From sequence record NC_027993.1: 43,587 nucleotides of DNA; one strand, 5' to 3'. The position numbers and the translations under genes were made by a program. The notes under the pieces are model-generated. The model was not told the origin of the DNA. It saw only the letters and a program-made list of their open reading frames with translations, and did not search any database. The stretch's first letter is position 1, and each line of letters opens with the position of its first letter. This DNA comes from Escherichia phage K1G. Of the stretch, positions 4,345 through 42,668 are shown piece by piece.

Positions 4345-4408
4345 AGTGCCTGTGATTATTCCAGTTATTCCACTCAATTGTAAATGTTGGAATAAACTAT
4401 TCGAATAG

Positions 4409-4437
4409 TTGACTTTTCACCAAAAATGTGCTAAGCT
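4409..4437 (+). promoter_or_regulatory. sigma70-like promoter TTGACT-N17-TAAGCT with TGn extension; -35 overlaps 16-bp perfect palindrome AACTATTCGAATAGTT (4395-4410)
   Basis: hexamers and spacing read directly; -10 is weak (3/6) but preceded by TG. Confidence 0.45.
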
Positions 4438-14530: not shown

Positions 14531-14722
14531 TCACTTCTCTTTGACATTCGAGTTGCACGCCCAGATTAAGATAAATACCCACGGCAGCAGAACCCAACCA
14601 AGAAACAGATTAGCCATGAATATCGCTAACTTCGCTTTATGGTTACGGAAGTACGCAACCAGGAAAGGCGCGAAATAAGCGAGCAGTGCAAACAGAATTA
14701 AGGAAACTGGTAAACTGGACAT
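14531..14722 (-). CDS. small 2-TM membrane protein, superinfection-immunity-like (Imm-type motif)
   Basis: 63 aa from ATG 14722 (RBS AAGGGG; track ORF starts 15 nt upstream); motif RNHK...NLFLGWVLLPWVFILIWA recalled as typical of Imm_superinfect family. Confidence 0.5.
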   Translation of the reverse strand: MSSLPVSLILFALLAYFAPFLVAYFRNHKAKLAIFMANLFLGWVLLPWVFILIWACNSNVKEK

Positions 14723-14752
14723 TTTAAACCCCTTCATTGTTGGTGTAAGTGA

Positions 14753-14781
14753 ATAGTACCCTATTATATTGGGGTGTGCAA
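14753..14781 (-). promoter_or_regulatory. early-type promoter TTGCAC-N17-TACTAT (family 2) driving the antisense cassette
   Basis: minus-strand sequence cTTGCACaccccaatataatagggTACTATtcac nearly identical to + strand promoter at 37043; contains AATAG-N4-CTATT. Confidence 0.5.
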
Positions 14782-14889: not shown

Positions 14890-15306
14890 ATGAAACTTTC
14901 TGATTTTTATTTCGAAGAGAAAGCACTGGTAGGCAAGAAGATGCCCATTCTGCTGCCAAACGGCGAAGACTCCGGTGAATGGCTTAACGTTGTAAGTCCC
15001 GATGCGGATGTCGCCGTTAAAGCGGGGCGTGCTTTCATTATTGCGTACCGTCGCGGGTTGGCGCGTTTCGAAGAACTGGAAAAAGCCGCCAAAGAATCCG
15101 GCGACTATACTGAATATAACCTGGCTATTAACGAACTGGCGGAAGACCTCAACCGGCAACTCGCGGCAGAAGTCGTAAACGGCTGGAGCTTTGATGAGCC
15201 TTTCTCTAAAGAAGCATTTAACAAATTGCTGGACCAGTTCAAGGCATTAGGCACACAGGTAGCAGCGTTCCATAACGCTGAGCGCAAAGCATTACAGGAA
15301 AAGTAG
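14890..15306 (+). CDS. tail assembly chaperone (G-like)
   Basis: 138-aa acidic ORF immediately upstream of tape measure gene; -1 frame ORF overlaps its 3' end. Confidence 0.55.
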   Translation: MKLSDFYFEEKALVGKKMPILLPNGEDSGEWLNVVSPDADVAVKAGRAFIIAYRRGLARFEELEKAAKESGDYTEYNLAINELAEDLNRQLAAEVVNGWSFDEPFSKEAFNKLLDQFKALGTQVAAFHNAERKALQEK

Positions 15307-25172: not shown

Positions 25173-26593
25173 TTCTTACCTCGTCTCTTCATATAATTAA
25201 GCAACTCTTCTTGCACAGATTTCTTTTCGTCAGTACGCGCGGCGACAACCTCGTCCAGCGTGTCTTTAGCAACGATGTGGTACAGGAACACCGGCCTCTC
25301 GTGTCCTGCCTGTTTCTGGCGGACCGGGCCTATTCGCTCGACAACCTGCAAATAGTGCTCAAGGTTCCAGCCTTGCGAGATGAATGCCAGATGATGTCCG
25401 CCGTCCTGTAAATTCAAACCATGTCCGGCCGACGCAGGATGCACGCATAAGATTTCGATTTCGCCGCGGTTCCATGCTTCCATCTGCTTATTACCCTTAG
25501 CACCTTTCGCGAATGCCTGCGCCTGCGGGAAACGTTTCAGGATACGCTCCAGTTCGTGCTTGAACTGATAGGCTACCAGTAGCGGAGCACCCTGTAACTC
25601 CTCAACAATTGACTCCAGCGCATCCAGTTTCATGTCGTGCACTTTCTCCCAGTCTTTGGTTGCTTCTCCGTCTGGCCCTGATACATACACAGCACCAGAA
25701 GCAATCTGCAAACACTTTGACGTCTTTGCCGCGGCGTTAGCCGCTTCAACTTCTCCGCTTTCCAGTTCCGCGAATAACTTTTCCTCCATATCGATGTACG
25801 CCTGACGCGCTTTCTTCGGCAGATCTATTTCAACCGGCACTATAATAGGCGCTTCACAACCGAACCACTCAGCGGCGTCAATCGTGAGACTAATGTCCTT
25901 CATCTTCTGGTGGATCTCATTATCTGCACCAGGACGCGCATGATACTCCCGCGCCATCGCCGACTTACCTTTTTGCACAGAGTTGAACCAGCGGTCGGTG
26001 AACGCAGTGTACGATGAACCGAGGCGCTCGCCAGCGTCGATAAACCAGTTCTGGCCCCACAGGTCTTTGAGGCCGTTAGGCGACGGTGTGCCCGTCAGAT
26101 TGATGAAACGCTTAACTTTACCGAACGCCACTTTGCTGAGCGCCTTTGCCCGCTTGCTACCACCAGAACGGCTACGGAATGACTTCAGTTTCGTACTCTC
26201 ATCTGCAACGATAACCGTAAAAGGCCAGTCGTCTTTGCCGTAGTAGTCAATCAGCCACTCGATAACTTCGTAGTTGGTACACACCACGTTAACATCTGAC
26301 TCCAGCGCCGCGATGCGGCGTTTCTCTGAACCTGTCGCATCTACGACACGCAGGCACGGGAATCGCCATTTCTCTTGTTCTGCCGGCCATGTACCTGATG
26401 CAACGCGCAACGGGGCGAGAATTAACACGCGGTCGTCGTCCGTAAGTTGCCCGTTGCGGAACAGGCGGTTTAAAGTCCACAGGACGCTGCCAGTCTTCCC
26501 GGCGCCCATGCTCGCCCAAATATTACAGCGATGGTGTTGCAGCATGAACGAAGTCATGAGCTTCTGGTATTCGCGCCTTTGAAACTTACTCAT
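25169..26593 (-). CDS. SNF2-family DNA helicase/ATPase
   Basis: motif I GAGKTG, motif II DESTKL, LTGTP; 474 aa. Confidence 0.8.
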   Translation of the reverse strand: MSKFQRREYQKLMTSFMLQHHRCNIWASMGAGKTGSVLWTLNRLFRNGQLTDDDRVLILAPLRVASGTWPAEQEKWRFPCLRVVDATGSEKRRIAALESDVNVVCTNYEVIEWLIDYYGKDDWPFTVIVADESTKLKSFRSRSGGSKRAKALSKVAFGKVKRFINLTGTPSPNGLKDLWGQNWFIDAGERLGSSYTAFTDRWFNSVQKGKSAMAREYHARPGADNEIHQKMKDISLTIDAAEWFGCEAPIIVPVEIDLPKKARQAYIDMEEKLFAELESGEVEAANAAAKTSKCLQIASGAVYVSGPDGEATKDWEKVHDMKLDALESIVEELQGAPLLVAYQFKHELERILKRFPQAQAFAKGAKGNKQMEAWNRGEIEILCVHPASAGHGLNLQDGGHHLAFISQGWNLEHYLQVVERIGPVRQKQAGHERPVFLYHIVAKDTLDEVVAARTDEKKSVQEELLNYMKRRGKK

Positions 26594-27410
26594 TTACGGC
26601 CCCCATAAACGCCTTTATAAATTCGGCGGCTACTTGCGGGACGATGGCATTGCCGTAACCGCGCAATCGTCCCACTCTTGCGGGTATCCCATTAGCCAGC
26701 GGGAATGCGCCGGGTTCAACCGGCCGGAACTTTCCATCACGGCATCCGAGCCAGTCAGCATCTGACCAGAAGCCGTGGTGCGGGTTGGTTGACTCGCTTT
26801 CAATCCCTGCTCTGTTGAGTAGTCCAGCCTGTCGAATGTTCTGTCCCTCCCGTCCGTGCGAATCACTGTCTCTCCGCTCCCTCTGAAGTCGTTCGCTGTC
26901 GGTGTAGGCCAGTTCGTGCGCGCCAAAGAAGAGTCGTTCTCTTTTGTGCGGTGCGCCGACGCTACAAGCTGGGAGTACAGCAAACCCGACGGCGTAGTCT
27001 TCTCCTTCCAGGTGAGCTTGTAAATCGCACATCCACGATTTTGCAATTGCTGCCGCAACCTGCTCCCCAAAGATGACTGGAGGGCGGCACTCGCTGATGA
27101 GGTCGAGGAAGACCGGCGCGAGGTGTCTCGGGTCGAACTGTCCGAGTTGCTTTCCCGCCGCGCTAAACGGTTGGCAAGGCGGGCTTCCCGTCCAGAGAGG
27201 CGCATCTTCCGGAACTCCCGCAAGTCTGAGCGCGAGAGGCCAGCCGCCGATACCCGCGAAAAAATGACACTGGGTGAACCCGTCAAGGTCTTCTGGCTTA
27301 ACTTCGGTAATGCTTCTTTCATCTACAACTCCAAAAGGTATGTGACCCTGTTTTATCAACTCACGCAGCCACGCGGCTGCGCCTTTATCCCATTCATTGT
27401 AATAGTTCAT
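26586..27410 (-). CDS. DNA (cytosine-5)-methyltransferase
   Basis: motif I FFAGIGGW, motif [19 protein letters not shown] (ENV-like), C-terminal GYGNAIVP. Confidence 0.8.
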
Positions 27411-27628: not shown

Positions 27629-27913
27629 CTAACTATAATAGCTAGCTATTAGGTCGTCAACCTGTTTAAACGAACCAACGACAAAAACATTCGCACCACG
27701 TTTACGCATCCGCTCATGTTCCCGTAGCTGGTGCGGGTCTGGCTTCGTGTTCTCGTCTTTCTTAACCTCGACGAACCAGACTATGCCGCCGGGGAGAATT
27801 ACCAGCAGGTCTGGGGCGCCGGAACGCCCCTCGTAGGAGAGTTTGCGAACGAGGCCGCCAAGGGCCTCGAATCGGTCTTTTGCGTATTTCTGTACGCGGC
27901 CCTCTTTAGTCAT
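27629..27913 (-). CDS. VRR-NUC domain nuclease
   Basis: PD-(D/E)xK signature GAPDLLV...VEVKK; ATG at 27913 overlaps upstream stop. Confidence 0.6.
   Translation of the reverse strand: MTKEGRVQKYAKDRFEALGGLVRKLSYEGRSGAPDLLVILPGGIVWFVEVKKDENTKPDPHQLREHERMRKRGANVFVVGSFKQVDDLIASYYS
27632..27660 (-). promoter_or_regulatory. early promoter TTGACG-N17-TATAGT (family 1) with 16-bp perfect palindrome TAATAGCTAGCTATTA in spacer
   Basis: read on minus strand: TTGACGacctAATAGCTAGCTATTATAGTT. Confidence 0.6.
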
Positions 27914-31185: not shown

Positions 31186-31214
31186 ACTATAATAGCTAAC
31201 TATTCGGGTGTCAA
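31186..31214 (-). promoter_or_regulatory. early promoter TTGACA-N17-TATAGT (family 1)
   Basis: minus strand TTGACAcccgAATAGTTAGCTATTATAGTT; near-palindromic AATAG-N4-CTATT. Confidence 0.6.
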
Positions 31215-32781: not shown

Positions 32782-33303
32782 TTATTCTTCTTCGAAATAC
32801 TTGTTCTTGATTGCTGTCAGGCGCTCCAGATACTCAGCCAGGTCTTCGTCTTTAATCGCTGCAATCTTCATCTTCTTACCGGTAAACTCTTCCAGCAGTT
32901 CGTCAGAATCGTCGCACGCGGCATCGCTTGGGCCTTCGTTAATCGCATCGTCGATAGCCTGAATCTGGTCGCGCAGAGACTGGTAATCGACTTCTTCTTT
33001 CTCTTCTTCCGGCTCTGGCGTTGGTTCCTCTACTTTGTCCTTACGCGGCTTGCGCTTCGGCTTCTCTTCTTCTGCTGGTTTAGTGTCGACGATGTCTTCA
33101 CCTTCAACCGGGATTTCTTTCGCCTTCTCGACTTCTTCAAGTGCTTTAGCCAGTTCTTTTTTAACTGTCTCTACCCCAGTTACCGCGACGTCAACAGTCA
33201 ATTCACCTACAGATTTGCTAGTCGGTTGTTTCACACTGTTTGCAGCAATCAGTTCGTGGGCGACTACGAAACGTTCCAGTAATACCAAGAATTTCTCTAA
33301 CAT
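32782..33303 (-). CDS. acidic early protein
   Basis: 173 aa, strongly acidic C-terminal two thirds; strong RBS GAGGAGAG; first gene after promoter 33335-33363. Confidence 0.6.
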   Translation of the reverse strand: MLEKFLVLLERFVVAHELIAANSVKQPTSKSVGELTVDVAVTGVETVKKELAKALEEVEKAKEIPVEGEDIVDTKPAEEEKPKRKPRKDKVEEPTPEPEEEKEEVDYQSLRDQIQAIDDAINEGPSDAACDDSDELLEEFTGKKMKIAAIKDEDLAEYLERLTAIKNKYFEEE

Positions 33304-33334
33304 TTGTTTCTCTCCTCTCGTTTGGTATGGGCTA

Positions 33335-33363
33335 ACTATAATAGCGAACTATTCACTTGTCAA
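33335..33363 (-). promoter_or_regulatory. early promoter TTGACA-N17-TATAGT (family 1)
   Basis: minus strand TTGACAagtgAATAGTTCGCTATTATAGTT. Confidence 0.6.
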
Positions 33364-33427
33364 TGGGCTTTTCTAAAATAATTAATATGGTACTATTCAC
33401 ATATCAACTGACTAAGGAGTAATTGGC

Positions 33428-33643
33428 ATGCAACCATCTGAACTAGGTATCCGTGTAGAGCAACGCCGTAAAGAACTCGGTATCTCCCAGCGCCATCTGG
33501 CTGTCCTGGCCGGTGTTTCCCAAGGCGCGATTAACCAGCTGGCACTTGGGGTAACTCAGGACGTCCGCCCAGCGACGCTGTTTAAACTGGCGGAAGTGCT
33601 GCAAGTAGACGCCAAGTGGCTGGCGTTCGGTGAAGGGGCTTAA
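33428..33643 (+). CDS. XRE/Cro-type HTH transcriptional regulator
   Basis: 71 aa; HTH segment ISQRHLAVLAGVSQGAINQL; RBS AAGGAG; divergent from leftward early operon. Confidence 0.7.
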   Translation: MQPSELGIRVEQRRKELGISQRHLAVLAGVSQGAINQLALGVTQDVRPATLFKLAEVLQVDAKWLAFGEGA

Positions 33644-33660
33644 CGCCCCTTTCTTTTTAT
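33635..33660 (+). terminator. rho-independent terminator
   Basis: GGGGC-TTAAC-GCCCC hairpin followed by TTTCTTTTTAT. Confidence 0.7.
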
Positions 33661-33854
33661 TGCACCTTTATCGGGTATCTTTTGCGAAACTTACCTAACC
33701 CGCAGTATACGCTGTAAGCCTCTGTGTAACTGTACACAACATGATACCCGCGCCCGTAAGGAACTACGTTAAGAACTTCCACTACTTCGCCTCTGTGGTT
33801 GGTGTATTTATTACCTTTAAGTTCGTCGCTTACTTCTTTAAATTTACCGCTCAT
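33657..33854 (-). CDS. hypothetical protein
   Basis: 65-aa ORF, start overlaps primase-helicase stop. Confidence 0.5.
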   Translation of the reverse strand: MSGKFKEVSDELKGNKYTNHRGEVVEVLNVVPYGRGYHVVYSYTEAYSVYCGLGKFRKRYPIKVQ

Positions 33855-36118
33855 TCCAAATCCTCCTCTGTCACTGTCAGCATCTCATTCGGTTCATATA
33901 TTGTCTTCGGAATCTTGTTATCAGTTATCCGGGTGTTCAGCCTGTAACGGCCAGGGATTATCTGATTGTTTTCGTCAGTCCCCGGAACAAGATACCCAGC
34001 CTCAACCATTTTCTTAATCTTCCCGCGTTCTATGGCTTCTTTGGAGTTAAACGCCTTTGCATTGGGGTCAGACTGTGCGAGCTTATTAGCGGCGGCGACT
34101 GTGATGCCTTCGTTGCCGTTGTAGGTTCCTTCCGCCAGTTCAAACGCCGCCAGTATCGTGGCTTCTGAACTGTTGACGGCGTTCTCTATGGTTTTACGTA
34201 CGTTTTCTTTACCTTCTTTCGTCAACCCTTCTTCCCGCTCTTTCTCCTCGTCAGTCTTGAACGGCTCGAAACCCCACGGCATTAACACAAGTGCCTTATG
34301 CGGCTCCGGCAGGTCTAGGTTTACGATTGTGCCGTATTCCTCCGTGCTACCGAGGAACTCAACCGCACGGTACTCTTTCGGCGGCGGCGCTTCACGGAAC
34401 TGTACAGACTCCAGCACCATACCAACCGTCTTCTGTTGAGGCCCGTGCTTGAATTTCGAGTGGTATACATTTATCTGGCGGTCGGTAGCTCGTTCGATTG
34501 TCAGTTCCACGTCGACGCCAGCATACAGCGCCCCACTGCCACGGGCTTTCTTTCCGCCCTTCGGCGTATGGTGGACAACGCCTACCGCAGCTTTAGTCGC
34601 GTCACGTACTTCTTTCAGGATGGCGATAACCTTACCCATGCCGATTGCCGTTGATGAACTGTTCTCGTCGAACTTATCAATCGTCAGGGCTAGCGTCTGG
34701 TTGAGGGTGTCGAACGCAACCATGCCGATGGGTTCGTCACCCGCAGTTTCACGCATCAACTTAATCAGGCTTTTCAGTTTTCCGACTTCGCCCATGTCGA
34801 TGACATGTACATAATCTTTACCTTCCTCGCTATACTTAGCTGCGAGCGCATCGATACGGGTGCGTGTAGCTGCGCCGCCCTCACCGTCGATATAAAAATG
34901 GTGGCAACGCTGCGTATCTGCCCCCGCAAACCGGTATCCGGCGGCGCTCAGGTACATCATCCCCAGCGTATAGAACGATTTGTACGTGCCGGATTCCCCG
35001 ACAATATCCCAGATACAATCTGACGGCATGTACCCTTCAACGACGAAATCCGCCTTTACCGGTTCCGGTAACTCGTCATCCTCTGAGTCCTCGTCATCTT
35101 CCAGGTCGTCGAGGCTGCATGAAACAGATTCACGTGCACCCCATCCGATGGCCTCTGCGACTTCACTGAACGGCAGCCCCGTCGCATCGCACGCATACTT
35201 CCACACCTCTTTCGGTGACATGCCTTCGGTCGCCGTAATGTCAGTGTCGTGAATCATGGTTACGTTCGGCGCCTCATATCCCTCTCGCGGGAAGCACAGC
35301 AGGAAGTCATCCGGGCGCGGCGTCGGGTCGCTGTAGTTTTCTGCGTGTTCTGGCGTAGCTGGCATCTTAAGGCCTCGTGGCGTCATGATACCGCCATACT
35401 CGAACGCCAGTGCCTCGAACGCGTCGGTAAACGCGGTGCGCAGTTCTTCCGGTATCTGGTAATCCGATGCGCTGCTAACGTCAACGGCGGGGATGCCTTC
35501 CAGTAACTCGTCCGGGTCAATCAGGTCGTTGCGGCGTGACCAGATAACGGTAGAGCCAACCGGAGGCAGGTACATCGGTTGCGAAAGAGTGAACCCGCTG
35601 CGGTCAGCACCCATGCTTTTGAAGAAGTGTTCCAGCAATCCATGGCGAACACGGATGATGTCACCACCTTCGACCGGACGGGCCAGCGGCATGACGACGC
35701 GAAAGCGCGGGGACTCGTCGGTATGTGATGCCGTGGTATAGATACACATGCCCCGGCGGCTGCGTTTAACTAAGCGCACCGCTTCCTGATACTCTTCTGG
35801 TGTTGCGCTGTCGAAGTCCAGATACGCCAGCGACGATTTGCTTACAGACGCGTCACAGCGATAGAAAAAGCCTTTACGCGCTTGCTTAAAGTCGCCGGTT
35901 TCCGGGTCTTTTACAGTGCTGTGCGTCGAGTCGCACGCGGCGGTGATATAACCGGGCGCGGTCTTCGGGTTAATTCCGTCACGGACAGCATCGAGTGGCT
36001 GGATTAACTCTTTCAGGTCGTCCAGTGTTGCCGTGTGTGTGGTTCTGACGTTTATATCCTTTTTCTCAGCCCGCGCGTTGCGACGCGACCACGAGTAGGA
36101 TAAAATTACATCGGACAT
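33851..36118 (-). CDS. DNA primase/helicase (RecA-fold ATPase)
   Basis: 755 aa; Walker A-like GESGTYKSF, large N-terminal domain; RBS GAAGGAAA. Confidence 0.7.
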   Translation of the reverse strand: MSDVILSYSWSRRNARAEKKDINVRTTHTATLDDLKELIQPLDAVRDGINPKTAPGYITAACDSTHSTVKDPETGDFKQARKGFFYRCDASVSKSSLAYLDFDSATPEEYQEAVRLVKRSRRGMCIYTTASHTDESPRFRVVMPLARPVEGGDIIRVRHGLLEHFFKSMGADRSGFTLSQPMYLPPVGSTVIWSRRNDLIDPDELLEGIPAVDVSSASDYQIPEELRTAFTDAFEALAFEYGGIMTPRGLKMPATPEHAENYSDPTPRPDDFLLCFPREGYEAPNVTMIHDTDITATEGMSPKEVWKYACDATGLPFSEVAEAIGWGARESVSCSLDDLEDDEDSEDDELPEPVKADFVVEGYMPSDCIWDIVGESGTYKSFYTLGMMYLSAAGYRFAGADTQRCHHFYIDGEGGAATRTRIDALAAKYSEEGKDYVHVIDMGEVGKLKSLIKLMRETAGDEPIGMVAFDTLNQTLALTIDKFDENSSSTAIGMGKVIAILKEVRDATKAAVGVVHHTPKGGKKARGSGALYAGVDVELTIERATDRQINVYHSKFKHGPQQKTVGMVLESVQFREAPPPKEYRAVEFLGSTEEYGTIVNLDLPEPHKALVLMPWGFEPFKTDEEKEREEGLTKEGKENVRKTIENAVNSSEATILAAFELAEGTYNGNEGITVAAANKLAQSDPNAKAFNSKEAIERGKIKKMVEAGYLVPGTDENNQIIPGRYRLNTRITDNKIPKTIYEPNEMLTVTEEDLE

Positions 36119-36176
36119 GTTATATTTCCTTCAGCAAGTAATTTGGCCTCGGCGTTCACCGCGTCGGGGCTTTCTT

Positions 36177-36452
36177 TTATTCCAGGTCGCGGGAGATATT
36201 ACCCTCGGGCACCAACACTTTTCCAATACTTCTCGCTTTCTCTGTAATAGGCGTCGCTCTTGTTGCCCGATAAAACTTTCCTTTATTAAGAATCTCACCA
36301 TGTCGCTCGAGCACATCTAAAGCATGTTTGATCGGGTTTACACCGTAATTATCCAACCGGTATCTCCGAAGCCCGTCTACCGTAAAAGCGCCGTTCGCTT
36401 CGGTCAGTCTGCGTGCACACATTAATATGTGTTTCTGGAATTTAGTTAGCAT
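36177..36452 (-). CDS. hypothetical protein
   Basis: ATG at 36452 with RBS AAGGAG; overlaps 3' end of upstream HTH gene. Confidence 0.45.
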   Translation of the reverse strand: MLTKFQKHILMCARRLTEANGAFTVDGLRRYRLDNYGVNPIKHALDVLERHGEILNKGKFYRATRATPITEKARSIGKVLVPEGNISRDLE

Positions 36453-36621
36453 CTTTAACGTTCTCCTTAATCCACGCCTCCACAGTAGCGCGGTCAAAGG
36501 TACCTGGCTGACGGTAGCCGTTGATAACGCGGCAACACTCCGGGAACTTTCCTGACCGAAGCCAGCGATTAAGAGTCATAGGGGAAACCCCGATTAAGTC
36601 TGCTACTTCTTTCTGTGTCAT
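36442..36621 (-). CDS. AlpA/Xis-like HTH DNA-binding protein
   Basis: MTQKEVADLIGVSPMTLNRWLRSGKFP; ATG at 36621 with RBS GAGGG (track ORF begins at TTG 36651). Confidence 0.6.
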   Translation of the reverse strand: MTQKEVADLIGVSPMTLNRWLRSGKFPECCRVINGYRQPGTFDRATVEAWIKENVKDAN

Positions 36622-36778
36622 TTTACGCGCCCTCTCTATCAAGTGAAACAACTATAACACCTACAATAGACAAACACAACCTATTGACAAAATAAAATGT
36701 AGCTGTAAAATCAACGTATCGAATGGCTTTAGTTAAGAATTACTTAGAAACAATATTCTTAAGTCTCGGGTACTTAAA

Positions 36779-36798
36779 GCCCCGCCATAAAGCGGGGC
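36779..36798 (-). promoter_or_regulatory. leader hairpin, reverse-orientation copy of the 4618-4637 hairpin
   Basis: GCCCCGC-CATAAA-GCGGGGC on + strand equals reverse complement of the spanin leader hairpin. Confidence 0.35.
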
Positions 36799-37042
36799 GC
36801 TAAATAGTACTCTTGGTAACGTTAGTATCTAAGTTTCCTCAAAGTAACAGCAAGTGGCAAGAAAGCCCCCGTCTATTTAAATTTTACCCTCCTTCATAAG
36901 CCACTGATAATTAAAAGTTTCTATAGTTGCCGTAAACGTGGAAGAGAGTACTTCACTTCGCTGGGGTGGGCTAACGCCCACCCACTGCGTTGCGTACTCT
37001 TTTAAGAAACGAAAGAATCACAACGGCAACGTAACTATTCTC

Positions 37043-37071
37043 TTGCACACCCCAACATAATAGGATACTAT
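37043..37071 (+). promoter_or_regulatory. early promoter TTGCAC-N17-TACTAT (family 2)
   Basis: cTTGCACaccccaacatAATAGGATACTATTcac. Confidence 0.5.
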
Positions 37072-37096
37072 TCACTTATCGAAACGAGACAGAGGA

Positions 37097-38365: not shown

Positions 38366-38394
38366 TTGCACACTAAGATAGAATAGGCTACTAT
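38366..38394 (+). promoter_or_regulatory. early promoter TTGCAC-N17-TACTAT (family 2)
   Basis: cTTGCACactaagatagAATAGGCTACTATTcat. Confidence 0.5.
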
Positions 38395-38425
38395 TCATTT
38401 ACACAAACGAGAGGAGAGACGGAAG

Positions 38426-40909: not shown

Positions 40910-40929
40910 CCGTTTTCTGTAATGACTAG

Positions 40930-40958
40930 TTGACTATTACCTTAGACCCTATTATATT
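40930..40958 (+). promoter_or_regulatory. promoter TTGACT-N17-TATATT
   Basis: hexamers and 17-bp spacer read directly; upstream of ORF 40992. Confidence 0.5.
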
Positions 40959-42275: not shown

Positions 42276-42435
42276 CATTAATGCGGCAATCGAAGAAGCA
42301 ATCTGGCGACGCTACAACGGTGAGCAACAACGGCACTTCTGCCTGGTGCAACGCGGAAACATGATTGCTGTGGTACAGGACCGTGATAATAAATATCCGA
42401 ATGCGATGTGGACAACGAGGAATTTCTTAGGATGA
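42241..42435 (+). CDS. hypothetical protein, start uncertain (TTG/GTG)
   Basis: ORF-track ORF; no ATG start. Confidence 0.35.
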   Translation: MGLCGVETVFSDINAAIEEAIWRRYNGEQQRHFCLVQRGNMIAVVQDRDNKYPNAMWTTRNFLG

Positions 42436-42668
42436 TTACCAGCATTCCGAACCTGATTAAAGAATTTGGCACGATGGCGGAGACATGCCGACAAACCGGC
42501 ATCAACGAAATGACGATTGCGAAGTACAGCAAAGACGTCGATTGTGAACGCCATGTAATTTATAACAATCGTCTGATGACGCACGTTAAGACAAGCCCGG
42601 TGTTATTCACGCGCCGGGGTATTACTAAAACAGAGCAACGTATTGCTAAAGAGGAGAGTGGGGAATGA
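42432..42668 (+). CDS. hypothetical protein with HTH-like segment
   Basis: ATG 42432 with RBS GAGGAA; TCRQTGINEMTIAKYSKD. Confidence 0.45.
   Translation: MITSIPNLIKEFGTMAETCRQTGINEMTIAKYSKDVDCERHVIYNNRLMTHVKTSPVLFTRRGITKTEQRIAKEESGE

Follow-up and report, generated by a model that had tools for sequence, protein, structure and literature searches.

A probable 434-Cro-type repressor and its putative dispersed operators in the lytic Escherichia phage K1G

Introduction

The operators of phage 434 are 14 bp long and read ACAA-N6-TTGT, with conserved outer bases and a variable centre. The core of the P22 operator, TTAAG-N4-CTTAA, is a 5-N4-5 dyad with a centre that is not contacted. In phage P1, one repressor, C1, acts on many promoters through single operators scattered over the genome; its sites are asymmetric and 17 bp long, and lysogeny is that of a plasmid prophage. 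Virulent derivatives of temperate Streptococcus thermophilus and lactococcal phages have retained a cro-type gene facing the early operon, without an integrase or CI. The controller (C) proteins of restriction-modification (R-M) systems, such as C.AhdI, are small dimeric HTH_3 proteins which bind promoter-overlapping dyads and serve as concentration-dependent timers. Here, a 71-amino-acid (aa) helix-turn-helix (HTH) regulator of Escherichia phage K1G and the palindrome AATAG-N4-CTATT were analysed in sequence record NC_027993.1 (whole stretch of 43,587 nt, referred to as the window). The protein probably represses transcription in the manner of 434 Cro, as a single-domain HTH protein acting at dispersed operators; the phage is an obligately lytic Kagunavirus.

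Among phages isolated for the therapy or food biocontrol of E. coli and Salmonella, Kagunaviruses and Jerseyviruses are some of the most frequent. The regulator gene is already labelled Cro, repressor, DicA or XRE regulator in many GenBank records, and the labels "Cro", "repressor" and "DicA" raise a lysogeny safety question for such phages. For phage Golestan, a PHIRE analysis yielded seven "conserved promoter sequences", and the motif is one of them (PMC7203180, Table S4). A link between motif and regulator, a reading of the motif as a dyad, its two registers and a conserved weak auto-operator were not found in the literature searched. Literature searches also returned nothing usable on MB78 or SETP3 promoters, on Jerseyvirus transcriptomes or pseudolysogeny, or on cell-free work with phage CM001.

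Results

Regulator gene and divergent promoter region

The regulator gene (33428..33643, + strand, ATG start in the list of open reading frames (ORFs)) encodes a 71-aa XRE-family protein with a Pfam HTH_3 match (E value 9.7e-12), as originally predicted, and diverges from a leftward operon across a gap of exactly 124 bp (33304-33427). The first gene of that operon (32782..33303, - strand) encodes a 173-aa, acidic, lysine-rich protein of phrog_3127 without HTH. The leftward promoter, TTGACA-17-TATAGT (33335..33363, - strand), matches the consensus at 11 of 12 positions; it would drive the 173-aa ORF, a 90-aa ORF and a PD-(D/E)XK exonuclease gene, and possibly genes beyond. Its spacer is filled by a perfect 5-N4-5 palindrome, the putative operator O1 (AATAG-CGAA-CTATT, AATAGCGAACTATT, 33340..33353), whose outer base overlaps the -10 hexamer. 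A second, imperfect putative operator, O2 (AATAT-GGTA-CTATT, AATATGGTACTATT, 33384..33397), differs from the perfect dyad by a single G-to-T change in its left arm. This site lies over the -10 of what is probably the regulator's promoter, an extended -10 TGgTACTAT (33388..33396, + strand) without a recognisable -35. The Shine-Dalgarno sequence AAGGAG of the regulator gene (33414..33419, + strand) is kept in 45 unique intergenic sequences. The original prediction had named the divergent arrangement and both pairs of half-sites; the first pair was found exactly where it had been placed, and the variant, expected near 33383-33396, is present but lies one base further on.

Distribution of the palindrome in the genome

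The perfect palindrome occurs six times in the window (14752, 27637, 31191, 33340, 37059 and 38382), and the one-mismatch site at 33384 is the seventh copy. For perfect copies, a first-order Markov model gave an expectation of 0.03 (Poisson probability ~1e-12). With up to one mismatch, AATAGNNNNCTATT was found in 9 copies against 1.24 expected, a number reached in 0 of 100 shuffles, and AATAG-N4-CTATT is the most frequent 5-N4-5 palindrome of the window. The central 4 bp differ at every site. All seven copies lie within sigma-70-like promoters, in the spacer or on the -10, and these promoters are oriented toward the adjacent downstream genes.

In class A, three leftward promoters (27660, 31214 and 33363) of the form TTGACA/G-N4-AATAGnnnnCTAT-TATAGT, the dyad fills the 17-bp spacer. 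Apart from O1, this class contains AATAGCTAACTATT (31191..31204) in the spacer of TTGACA-17-TATAGT (31214..31186), upstream of the single-stranded DNA (ssDNA)-binding protein and DNA polymerase genes, and AATAGCTAGCTATT (27637..27650) in the spacer of TTGACG-17-TATAGT (27660..27632), upstream of a 63-aa ORF and genes for a C5-methyltransferase and an SNF2 helicase. In class B (14781, - strand; 37043 and 38366, + strand), with TTGCAC-N10-AATAGGnTACTATT, the dyad covers the -10 hexamer TACTAT of TTGCAC-17-TACTAT promoters. Here, AATAGTACCCTATT (14752..14765) lies over the -10 of the leftward promoter 14781..14753 of a superinfection-immunity/exonuclease/polynucleotide kinase-phosphatase operon, in a divergent gap where the tail operon promoter must be located as well. 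AATAGGATACTATT (37059..37072) lies over that of the rightward promoter 37043..37071, upstream of a run of small ORFs, and AATAGGCTACTATT (38382..38395) over that of the rightward promoter 38366..38394, upstream of small ORFs toward the holin and endolysin genes. The regulator's own promoter, with its extended -10, is a class B variant that lacks the -35.

The AATAG arm has no known sigma-70 role where it stands in the spacer. Given its two registers with respect to the -10, the palindrome is more than a promoter element. A switch between two promoters had been envisaged in the original prediction; the regulatory role is supported, but the picture was too local, as the same palindrome is present at five further promoter regions up to 19 kb away, for which a genome-wide repressor is the better description.

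Perfect sites were found neither at the primase operon promoter near 36650 nor at two head/packaging promoters (4409 and 40930). Near 36650, only AATAG-N11-CTATT is present, which is not conserved (AATAA in the related locus L034) and was rejected as a canonical operator. At the two rightward head/packaging promoters, one-mismatch dyads (AATAGTTGACTTTT and ACTAGTTGACTATT, 4404-4417 and 40925-40938) lie over the -35 TTGACT; the spanin, scaffold and major head genes follow one of these promoters, and small ORFs leading up to the terminase follow the other. The equivalent in the Jerseyvirus Shelanagig is AATAGTTGACTAGT. These quasi-sites may be weak operators or may have arisen by chance.

Sequence and predicted structure of the regulator

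The HTH_3 (PF01381) match covers residues 11-65 (45.2 bits, cut-off 23). Together with a short tail, this domain accounts for all 71 aa; a C-terminal S24 peptidase or oligomerisation domain is absent, as in Cro-type and not CI-type proteins. The lambda Cro family, which has an alpha+beta fold, was not among the Pfam matches up to an E value of 0.1, all listed matches being HTH_3-type. The best sequence match in the PDB was phage 434 Cro, also of 71 aa (phmmer E value 4.9e-7, residues 6-68 against 4-64), followed by the 434 repressor DNA-binding domain and, more weakly, by P22 c2 (34% identity, E value 4e-3).

An AlphaFold2 model built with nine homologues has five helices (residues 5-17, 21-28, 32-39, 48-57 and 62-66) at a mean predicted local distance difference test score of 79. 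In a Foldseek search with this model, the closest structures were the 434 repressor domain, SinR, 434 Cro, HipB, C proteins and P22 c2, with template modelling scores of 0.74-0.76 to 1pra, 2cro and 3cro. The predicted fold is the five-helix 434 Cro/434 repressor type with helix 2-turn-helix 3, and residues 32-39 (SQGAINQL) are the predicted recognition helix. Residues 29-46, comprising the turn, the recognition helix and the next loop, are invariant in homologues down to 76% identity, and both termini vary. One metagenomic homologue (P0001, 84 aa) has its first ~13 residues tandemly duplicated (MQPSELGIRVEQRR-QPSELGIRVEKRR...), a short in-frame repeat at the gene's 5' end.

Outside the Guernseyvirinae, the nearest relatives are cro/repressor genes of temperate phages (RothD, Rac DicA, Stx phage CI). 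In the lambdoid Klebsiella phage RothD, a 45%-identical homologue is found at the position of cro, directly between CI and CII, and is flanked by ACAAACAAGTTTGT, a 434-type operator (ACAA-N6-TTGT). With 434 Cro as top PDB match, the five-helix model and the RothD homologue, the label "Cro-like" given in the original prediction is well founded in the 434 sense, though not in the sense of the lambda Cro fold.

The window protein and 434 Cro are both single-domain, five-helix HTH_3 proteins of 71 aa and are ~40% identical; they share the glutamine with which the recognition helix begins (Q28 in 434). As in 434, the putative operator is 14 bp long with conserved outer bases and a variable centre, and the gene lies beside a divergent promoter pair. 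Unlike in 434, the half-site is AATAG and not ACAA[G/T], and the window protein has a two-residue insertion after the recognition helix. The phage, a virulent siphovirus and not a lambdoid temperate phage, lacks a CI partner, triple OR/OL arrays and PRM, and its seven putative operators are single and dispersed, whereas 434 has two clusters of three. The N-terminal domain of P22 c2 has the same fold as the window protein, and the P22 operators have the 5-N4-5 dyad geometry in common with the window palindrome, but the sequence similarity is lower; c2 also has a C-terminal oligomerisation/cleavage domain and maintains lysogeny, neither of which applies to the window protein.

Over the stop codon of the regulator gene lies an intrinsic-terminator-like hairpin with T-run (33632..33661, + strand; 8-bp stem with 5 GC pairs, followed by CTTTTTATTG), so that the regulator gene forms a one-gene rightward unit. 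Convergent on it is a leftward operon of HTH_17, primase-helicase and 65-aa-ORF genes (33643-36651, - strand). Because the hairpin (33632-33652) has a T-run on the + strand only, leftward primase operon transcripts may read through the regulator gene in antisense into the next operon.

Conservation in related phages

The 1.3 kb around the regulator locus matched 446 phage records at 80-99% identity, chiefly Escherichia Kagunavirus and Salmonella Jerseyvirus of the subfamily Guernseyvirinae. The window itself is an entire Kagunavirus genome of the K1H/Ivi type (~43.6 kb), because it starts with the ATG of the terminase large subunit and is collinear with the complete phage K1H and with phage Ivi. 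By tblastn, the regulator proteins of the Guernseyvirinae were assigned to three clusters, with >90% (Kagunavirus), ~51% (Jerseyvirus) and 39% (PSDA-2/PhiSTP2 lineage) identity. Additionally, 60 loci were gathered from IMG/VR through homology to the regulator protein. The word-indexed protein search returned only homologues of at least 75% identity and therefore provided no independent distant lineage for testing the operator assignment.

At 37 of 37 Kagunavirus-type loci of the IMG/VR set, AATAG-N4-CTATT is the top palindrome or tied for the top. In an alignment of the 45 unique intergenic sequences both O1 half-sites are invariant; the central four bases take six forms (CGAA, CTAA, TGAA, CGAG, CAAA and CTAG), and the 4-5 nt between O1 and the -35 vary, including an indel. 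All 38 Kagunavirus genomes compared have both gap sites, with O1 in the leftward spacer always perfect and O2 at the -10 of the regulator's promoter always bearing the identical single G-to-T mismatch. As this mismatch is constant, the weakness of O2 looks selected. Among covered Kagunavirus loci, the distant sites are perfect in 30 of 33 (27637), 32 of 35 (31191), 34 of 34 (37059) and 27 of 30 (38382). Five perfect sites are present at the orthologous promoters of the Jerseyvirus Shelanagig, whose regulator gap contains imperfect ones; the site orthologous to 14752 is located at 15200. In Jerseyvirus, where the gap is 10 bp longer, the regulator promoter combines an identical -10 with a TTGCAC or TTGCGT located 17 nt upstream. 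The recognition helices of Kagunavirus (SQGAINQL) and Jerseyvirus (SQSLITHL) differ at 4 of 8 positions, and the operator is common to both.

AATAG-N4-CTATT is absent from the PSDA-2/PhiSTP2 lineage, in which some promoters carry ATTA[CG]-N4-[CG]TAAT (2-3 copies per genome). In this lineage, the primase operon begins with the XRE gene, which lies on the same strand (L004 6551-7011, L005 19656-20059), the HTH_17 gene is missing, and the primase block has the opposite orientation to that of the window. The PSDA-2 primase-helicase (L004 4119-6418) is annotated as four separate coding sequences, which suggests frameshift errors in the record and calls for caution with the site counts of that genome.

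Lysogeny functions and prophage copies

In Pfam scans of the ten large non-structural ORFs of the window, neither an integrase nor a recombinase nor CI was detected; the small ORFs were not all scanned for recombinase domains. None of the three is annotated in the complete relatives Shelanagig, K1H, PSDA-2 and PhiSTP2 or in a 26-kb stretch of Ivi, and no prophage copy of the locus was detected in 5,426 complete E. coli genomes, in which the sole match was a CRISPR spacer. The original prediction, according to which such genes are lacking and the protein serves the lytic cycle rather than a lysogeny module, agrees with these results. Lysogeny genes were likewise not found in phage Golestan (PMC7203180), and the BASEL collection paper contains no report of temperate behaviour for Kagunavirus. 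The locus also does not have the CI-operators-Cro-CII order of a lambdoid immunity region, as the divergent gene encodes the 173-aa protein without HTH and the regulator gene is followed by the terminator and the convergent primase operon.

The CRISPR match is a 33-nt stretch, 100% identical to window positions 33359-33391, in a type I-E array beside cas1e/cas2e of E. coli 2017.09.02CC (NZ_AP025214.2 4038667-4038699; L068 1501-1533). A natural spacer thus targets the DNA between O1 and O2.

In the record CP088689.1 (pC16EC0033-2, L067), a complete Kagunavirus genome is entered as a "plasmid" of a clinical E. coli isolate from blood; the molecule is circular, 44,086 bp long and non-mobilizable. 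This record, which could represent culture carry-over or a carrier state, has an extra 75-aa ORF between the 173-aa homologue and the HTH gene. Cross-immunity by a resident repressor (DicA, 43% identical) was considered for the inhibition of some Kagunaviruses by K-12 cryptic prophages and was rejected; the BASEL collection paper attributes this effect to GtrABS O-antigen glucosylation.

Discussion

To all appearance, the gene encodes a lytic-cycle regulator. Its putative operator, a defined 14-bp sequence, lies at seven promoters, and the protein would probably turn down most transcription outside the head genes, including its own. From homology and site architecture, the following course of binding, dimerisation, repression and operator occupancy is proposed. 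After infection, host sigma-70 RNA polymerase would fire all phage promoters, including the weak extended -10 promoter of the regulator. The regulator would accumulate and bind AATAG-N4-CTATT as a dimer, and an occupied operator, whether in the -35/-10 spacer or across the -10, would exclude RNA polymerase. As the six perfect operators were filled, units for replication, recombination, methylase/helicase, superinfection immunity and small early genes would be turned down. The controlled units would be the 173-aa ORF and exonuclease genes, the ssDNA-binding protein and DNA polymerase genes, the methyltransferase and helicase genes, the superinfection-immunity/exonuclease/polynucleotide kinase-phosphatase genes and the two runs of small ORFs; via site 14752, tail expression may also be affected. 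The mismatched O2 on the regulator's own -10 would be filled last, resulting in weak negative autoregulation which limits the regulator level. The outcome would be that of Cro, i.e. early transcription turned down, without CI, integrase or a lysogenic alternative. In a study of a Kagunavirus (K1B4) by RNA sequencing, an HTH-domain gene was among only four early-peaking genes (PMC12645636). This gene (gene _008 of that study) is probably the orthologue of the XRE gene.

Such a circuit would be an expected, ordinary kind of regulator, genome-wide and in a phage without lysogeny genes, and involves no new principle. Like P1 C1, one small phage repressor is proposed to act at dispersed single operators; C1 is, however, unrelated in sequence, has asymmetric sites and serves lysogeny, whereas the window operators are symmetric and the phage is lytic. 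As in the virulent derivatives of temperate phages, a cro-type gene facing the early operon persists without integrase and CI. Those phages are recent deletion derivatives, whereas the Guernseyvirinae are a whole subfamily in which no temperate member was seen here, and in the window phage the operator has spread to seven promoters. The safety question raised by the gene labels is answered by the integrase not being found and by the lack of prophage copies in the 5,426 host genomes. With one repressor, seven operators and host sigma-70 promoters, the circuit is small, directly testable and usable in the engineering of 41-45 kb phages; uses lie in annotation, safety assessment of therapeutic phages and phage engineering.

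Several observations speak against regulation by this protein at dispersed operators. The primase operon promoter near 36650 is without a canonical site, and site 14752 faces the tail operon, so that a simple early-off, late-on picture is incomplete. In the class that overlaps the -10, the CTATT half-site is part of the hexamer TACTAT, and part of the half-site conservation is therefore explained by promoter function alone. Covariation of helix and operator does not appear clean, as the PSDA-2 helix (TQSAISHL) resembles that of Jerseyvirus although the motif is absent, and the replacement palindrome of this lineage, ATTA-N6-TAAT, is no commoner than background in other genomes. A clean covariation was rejected on these grounds and counts as weak evidence. 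Throughout the subfamily, binding and transcription starts are predicted from sequence.

The palindrome might be a real operator for another protein (HTH_17, NinH-like, an unannotated phage protein or a host regulator), with the XRE protein regulating another target or only itself. Further DNA-binding candidates are indeed encoded in the window, a 59-aa HTH_17 protein (excisionase or MerR-like; 36445-36621, - strand, E value 2.9e-9) and a NinH-like protein (42408-42665, + strand, weak match), and the XRE recognition helices of Kagunavirus and Jerseyvirus differ despite the common motif. However, in the Kagunavirus contigs L028 (12559-13144) and L021 (3624-4209), where the HTH_17 gene is replaced by unrelated ORFs of 149 aa and 47 aa, 6 and 3 perfect operators, respectively, are kept together with a 97%-identical XRE gene. 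The HTH_17 protein is also without an evident dimerisation element, whereas the 14-bp 5-N4-5 dyad fits the geometry of a 434-type dimer, and the NinH-like protein is equally conserved (55-69%) in the PSDA-2 lineage, which is free of the motif. Sites flanking the gene itself, of which the XRE gene has two, usually mark an autoregulated HTH protein. Of the three candidates, the XRE protein alone both accompanies the motif in every case and has diverged strongly in genomes without it. We infer that the XRE protein is the binder, and a different binder is unlikely. Alternatively, the protein could be a local autoregulator or two-promoter switch, the distant palindromes being copied phage promoter sequence that is left unbound. 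This would fit the motif's earlier report as a "conserved promoter" by PHIRE-type analyses, e.g. as TAATAGGGTACTATTCATTA in Golestan (PMC7203180, Table S4), and the overlap of the right half-site with the -10 in 4 of 7 sites. Yet the AATAG arm in the spacer, which makes no known sigma-70 contact, is as invariant as the arm overlapping the -10 while adjacent spacer bases drift, the dyad stands in two registers, and promoter duplication would have kept the central 4 bp, which differ at each site; we regard this explanation as quite unlikely.

Given that the closest homologues outside the Guernseyvirinae are cro/repressor genes of temperate phages, the regulator could also be the remnant of a lysogeny or immunity module, maintaining a non-integrated repressed carrier state or mainly excluding homoimmune superinfecting relatives. 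A repressor with operators at most promoters could in principle silence the genome, and the "plasmid" record CP088689.1 would be in line with this; a single plasmid-like record is, however, explicable as phage carry-over in the sequenced culture. An integrase, CI, partition or plasmid-replication gene is lacking, the locus was found in 0 of 5,426 complete E. coli genomes, and the subfamily is described as lytic (PMC7203180; BASEL collection paper). Silencing would also be incomplete, since the primase promoter has no operator. A lysogeny remnant is thus very unlikely. That the protein acts like an antitoxin or R-M controller, governing a toxin or the phage methyltransferase, was suggested by Foldseek scores to HipB, C.AhdI and C.BclI similar to that of 434 Cro, by HigA as a further structural neighbour, and by the C5 cytosine methyltransferase encoded by the phage. 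The likeness to C.AhdI-type proteins, small HTH_3 proteins as well, concerns the fold only; sequence similarity is clearly best to 434 Cro/repressor and far weaker to the C proteins. No toxin gene is co-transcribed from an adjacent position, as the regulator gene is monocistronic with its own terminator and has divergent or convergent neighbours without a co-directional partner. An adjacent R-M pair and C-box operators are absent, the methyltransferase gene (26586-27410) lies 6 kb away with no endonuclease partner seen, and the seven operators are found over unrelated operons. This role is extremely improbable.

A bolder form of the repressor model can be considered. A 71-aa Cro homologue, without CI and without a detected phage RNA polymerase or sigma factor, would be the master timer of a whole virulent siphovirus subfamily. 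Graded operators, i.e. six perfect sites, the one-mismatch own site and the two quasi-sites on the head/packaging -35 elements, would order the shutdown of essentially all non-head units, and the circuit could also keep the genome quiescent in a reversible, non-integrated form, at which the "plasmid" record hints. We consider this extension improbable.

Additional observations

The two ORFs that replace the HTH_17 gene in L028 and L021 (149 aa and 47 aa) had no Pfam match. The 47-aa ORF contains two CxxC pairs and is zinc-finger-like.

A stretch of ~440 bp (36652-37096) is without an ORF of at least 45 aa. It contains a rightward near-consensus promoter, TTGACA-16-TAAAAT (36684-36711), and two GC-rich inverted repeats (~36780-36797 and 36963-36984), and might encode a small RNA; an Rfam search of the window gave no match for an RNA in the non-coding 36.7-37.05 kb.

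The superinfection-immunity ORF is listed from an ATG at 14737, with the transcript predicted to begin ~9 nt before it. The likelier start is a second ATG, at 14722, because it follows AAGGGG and gives the 63-aa length annotated in phage Ivi.

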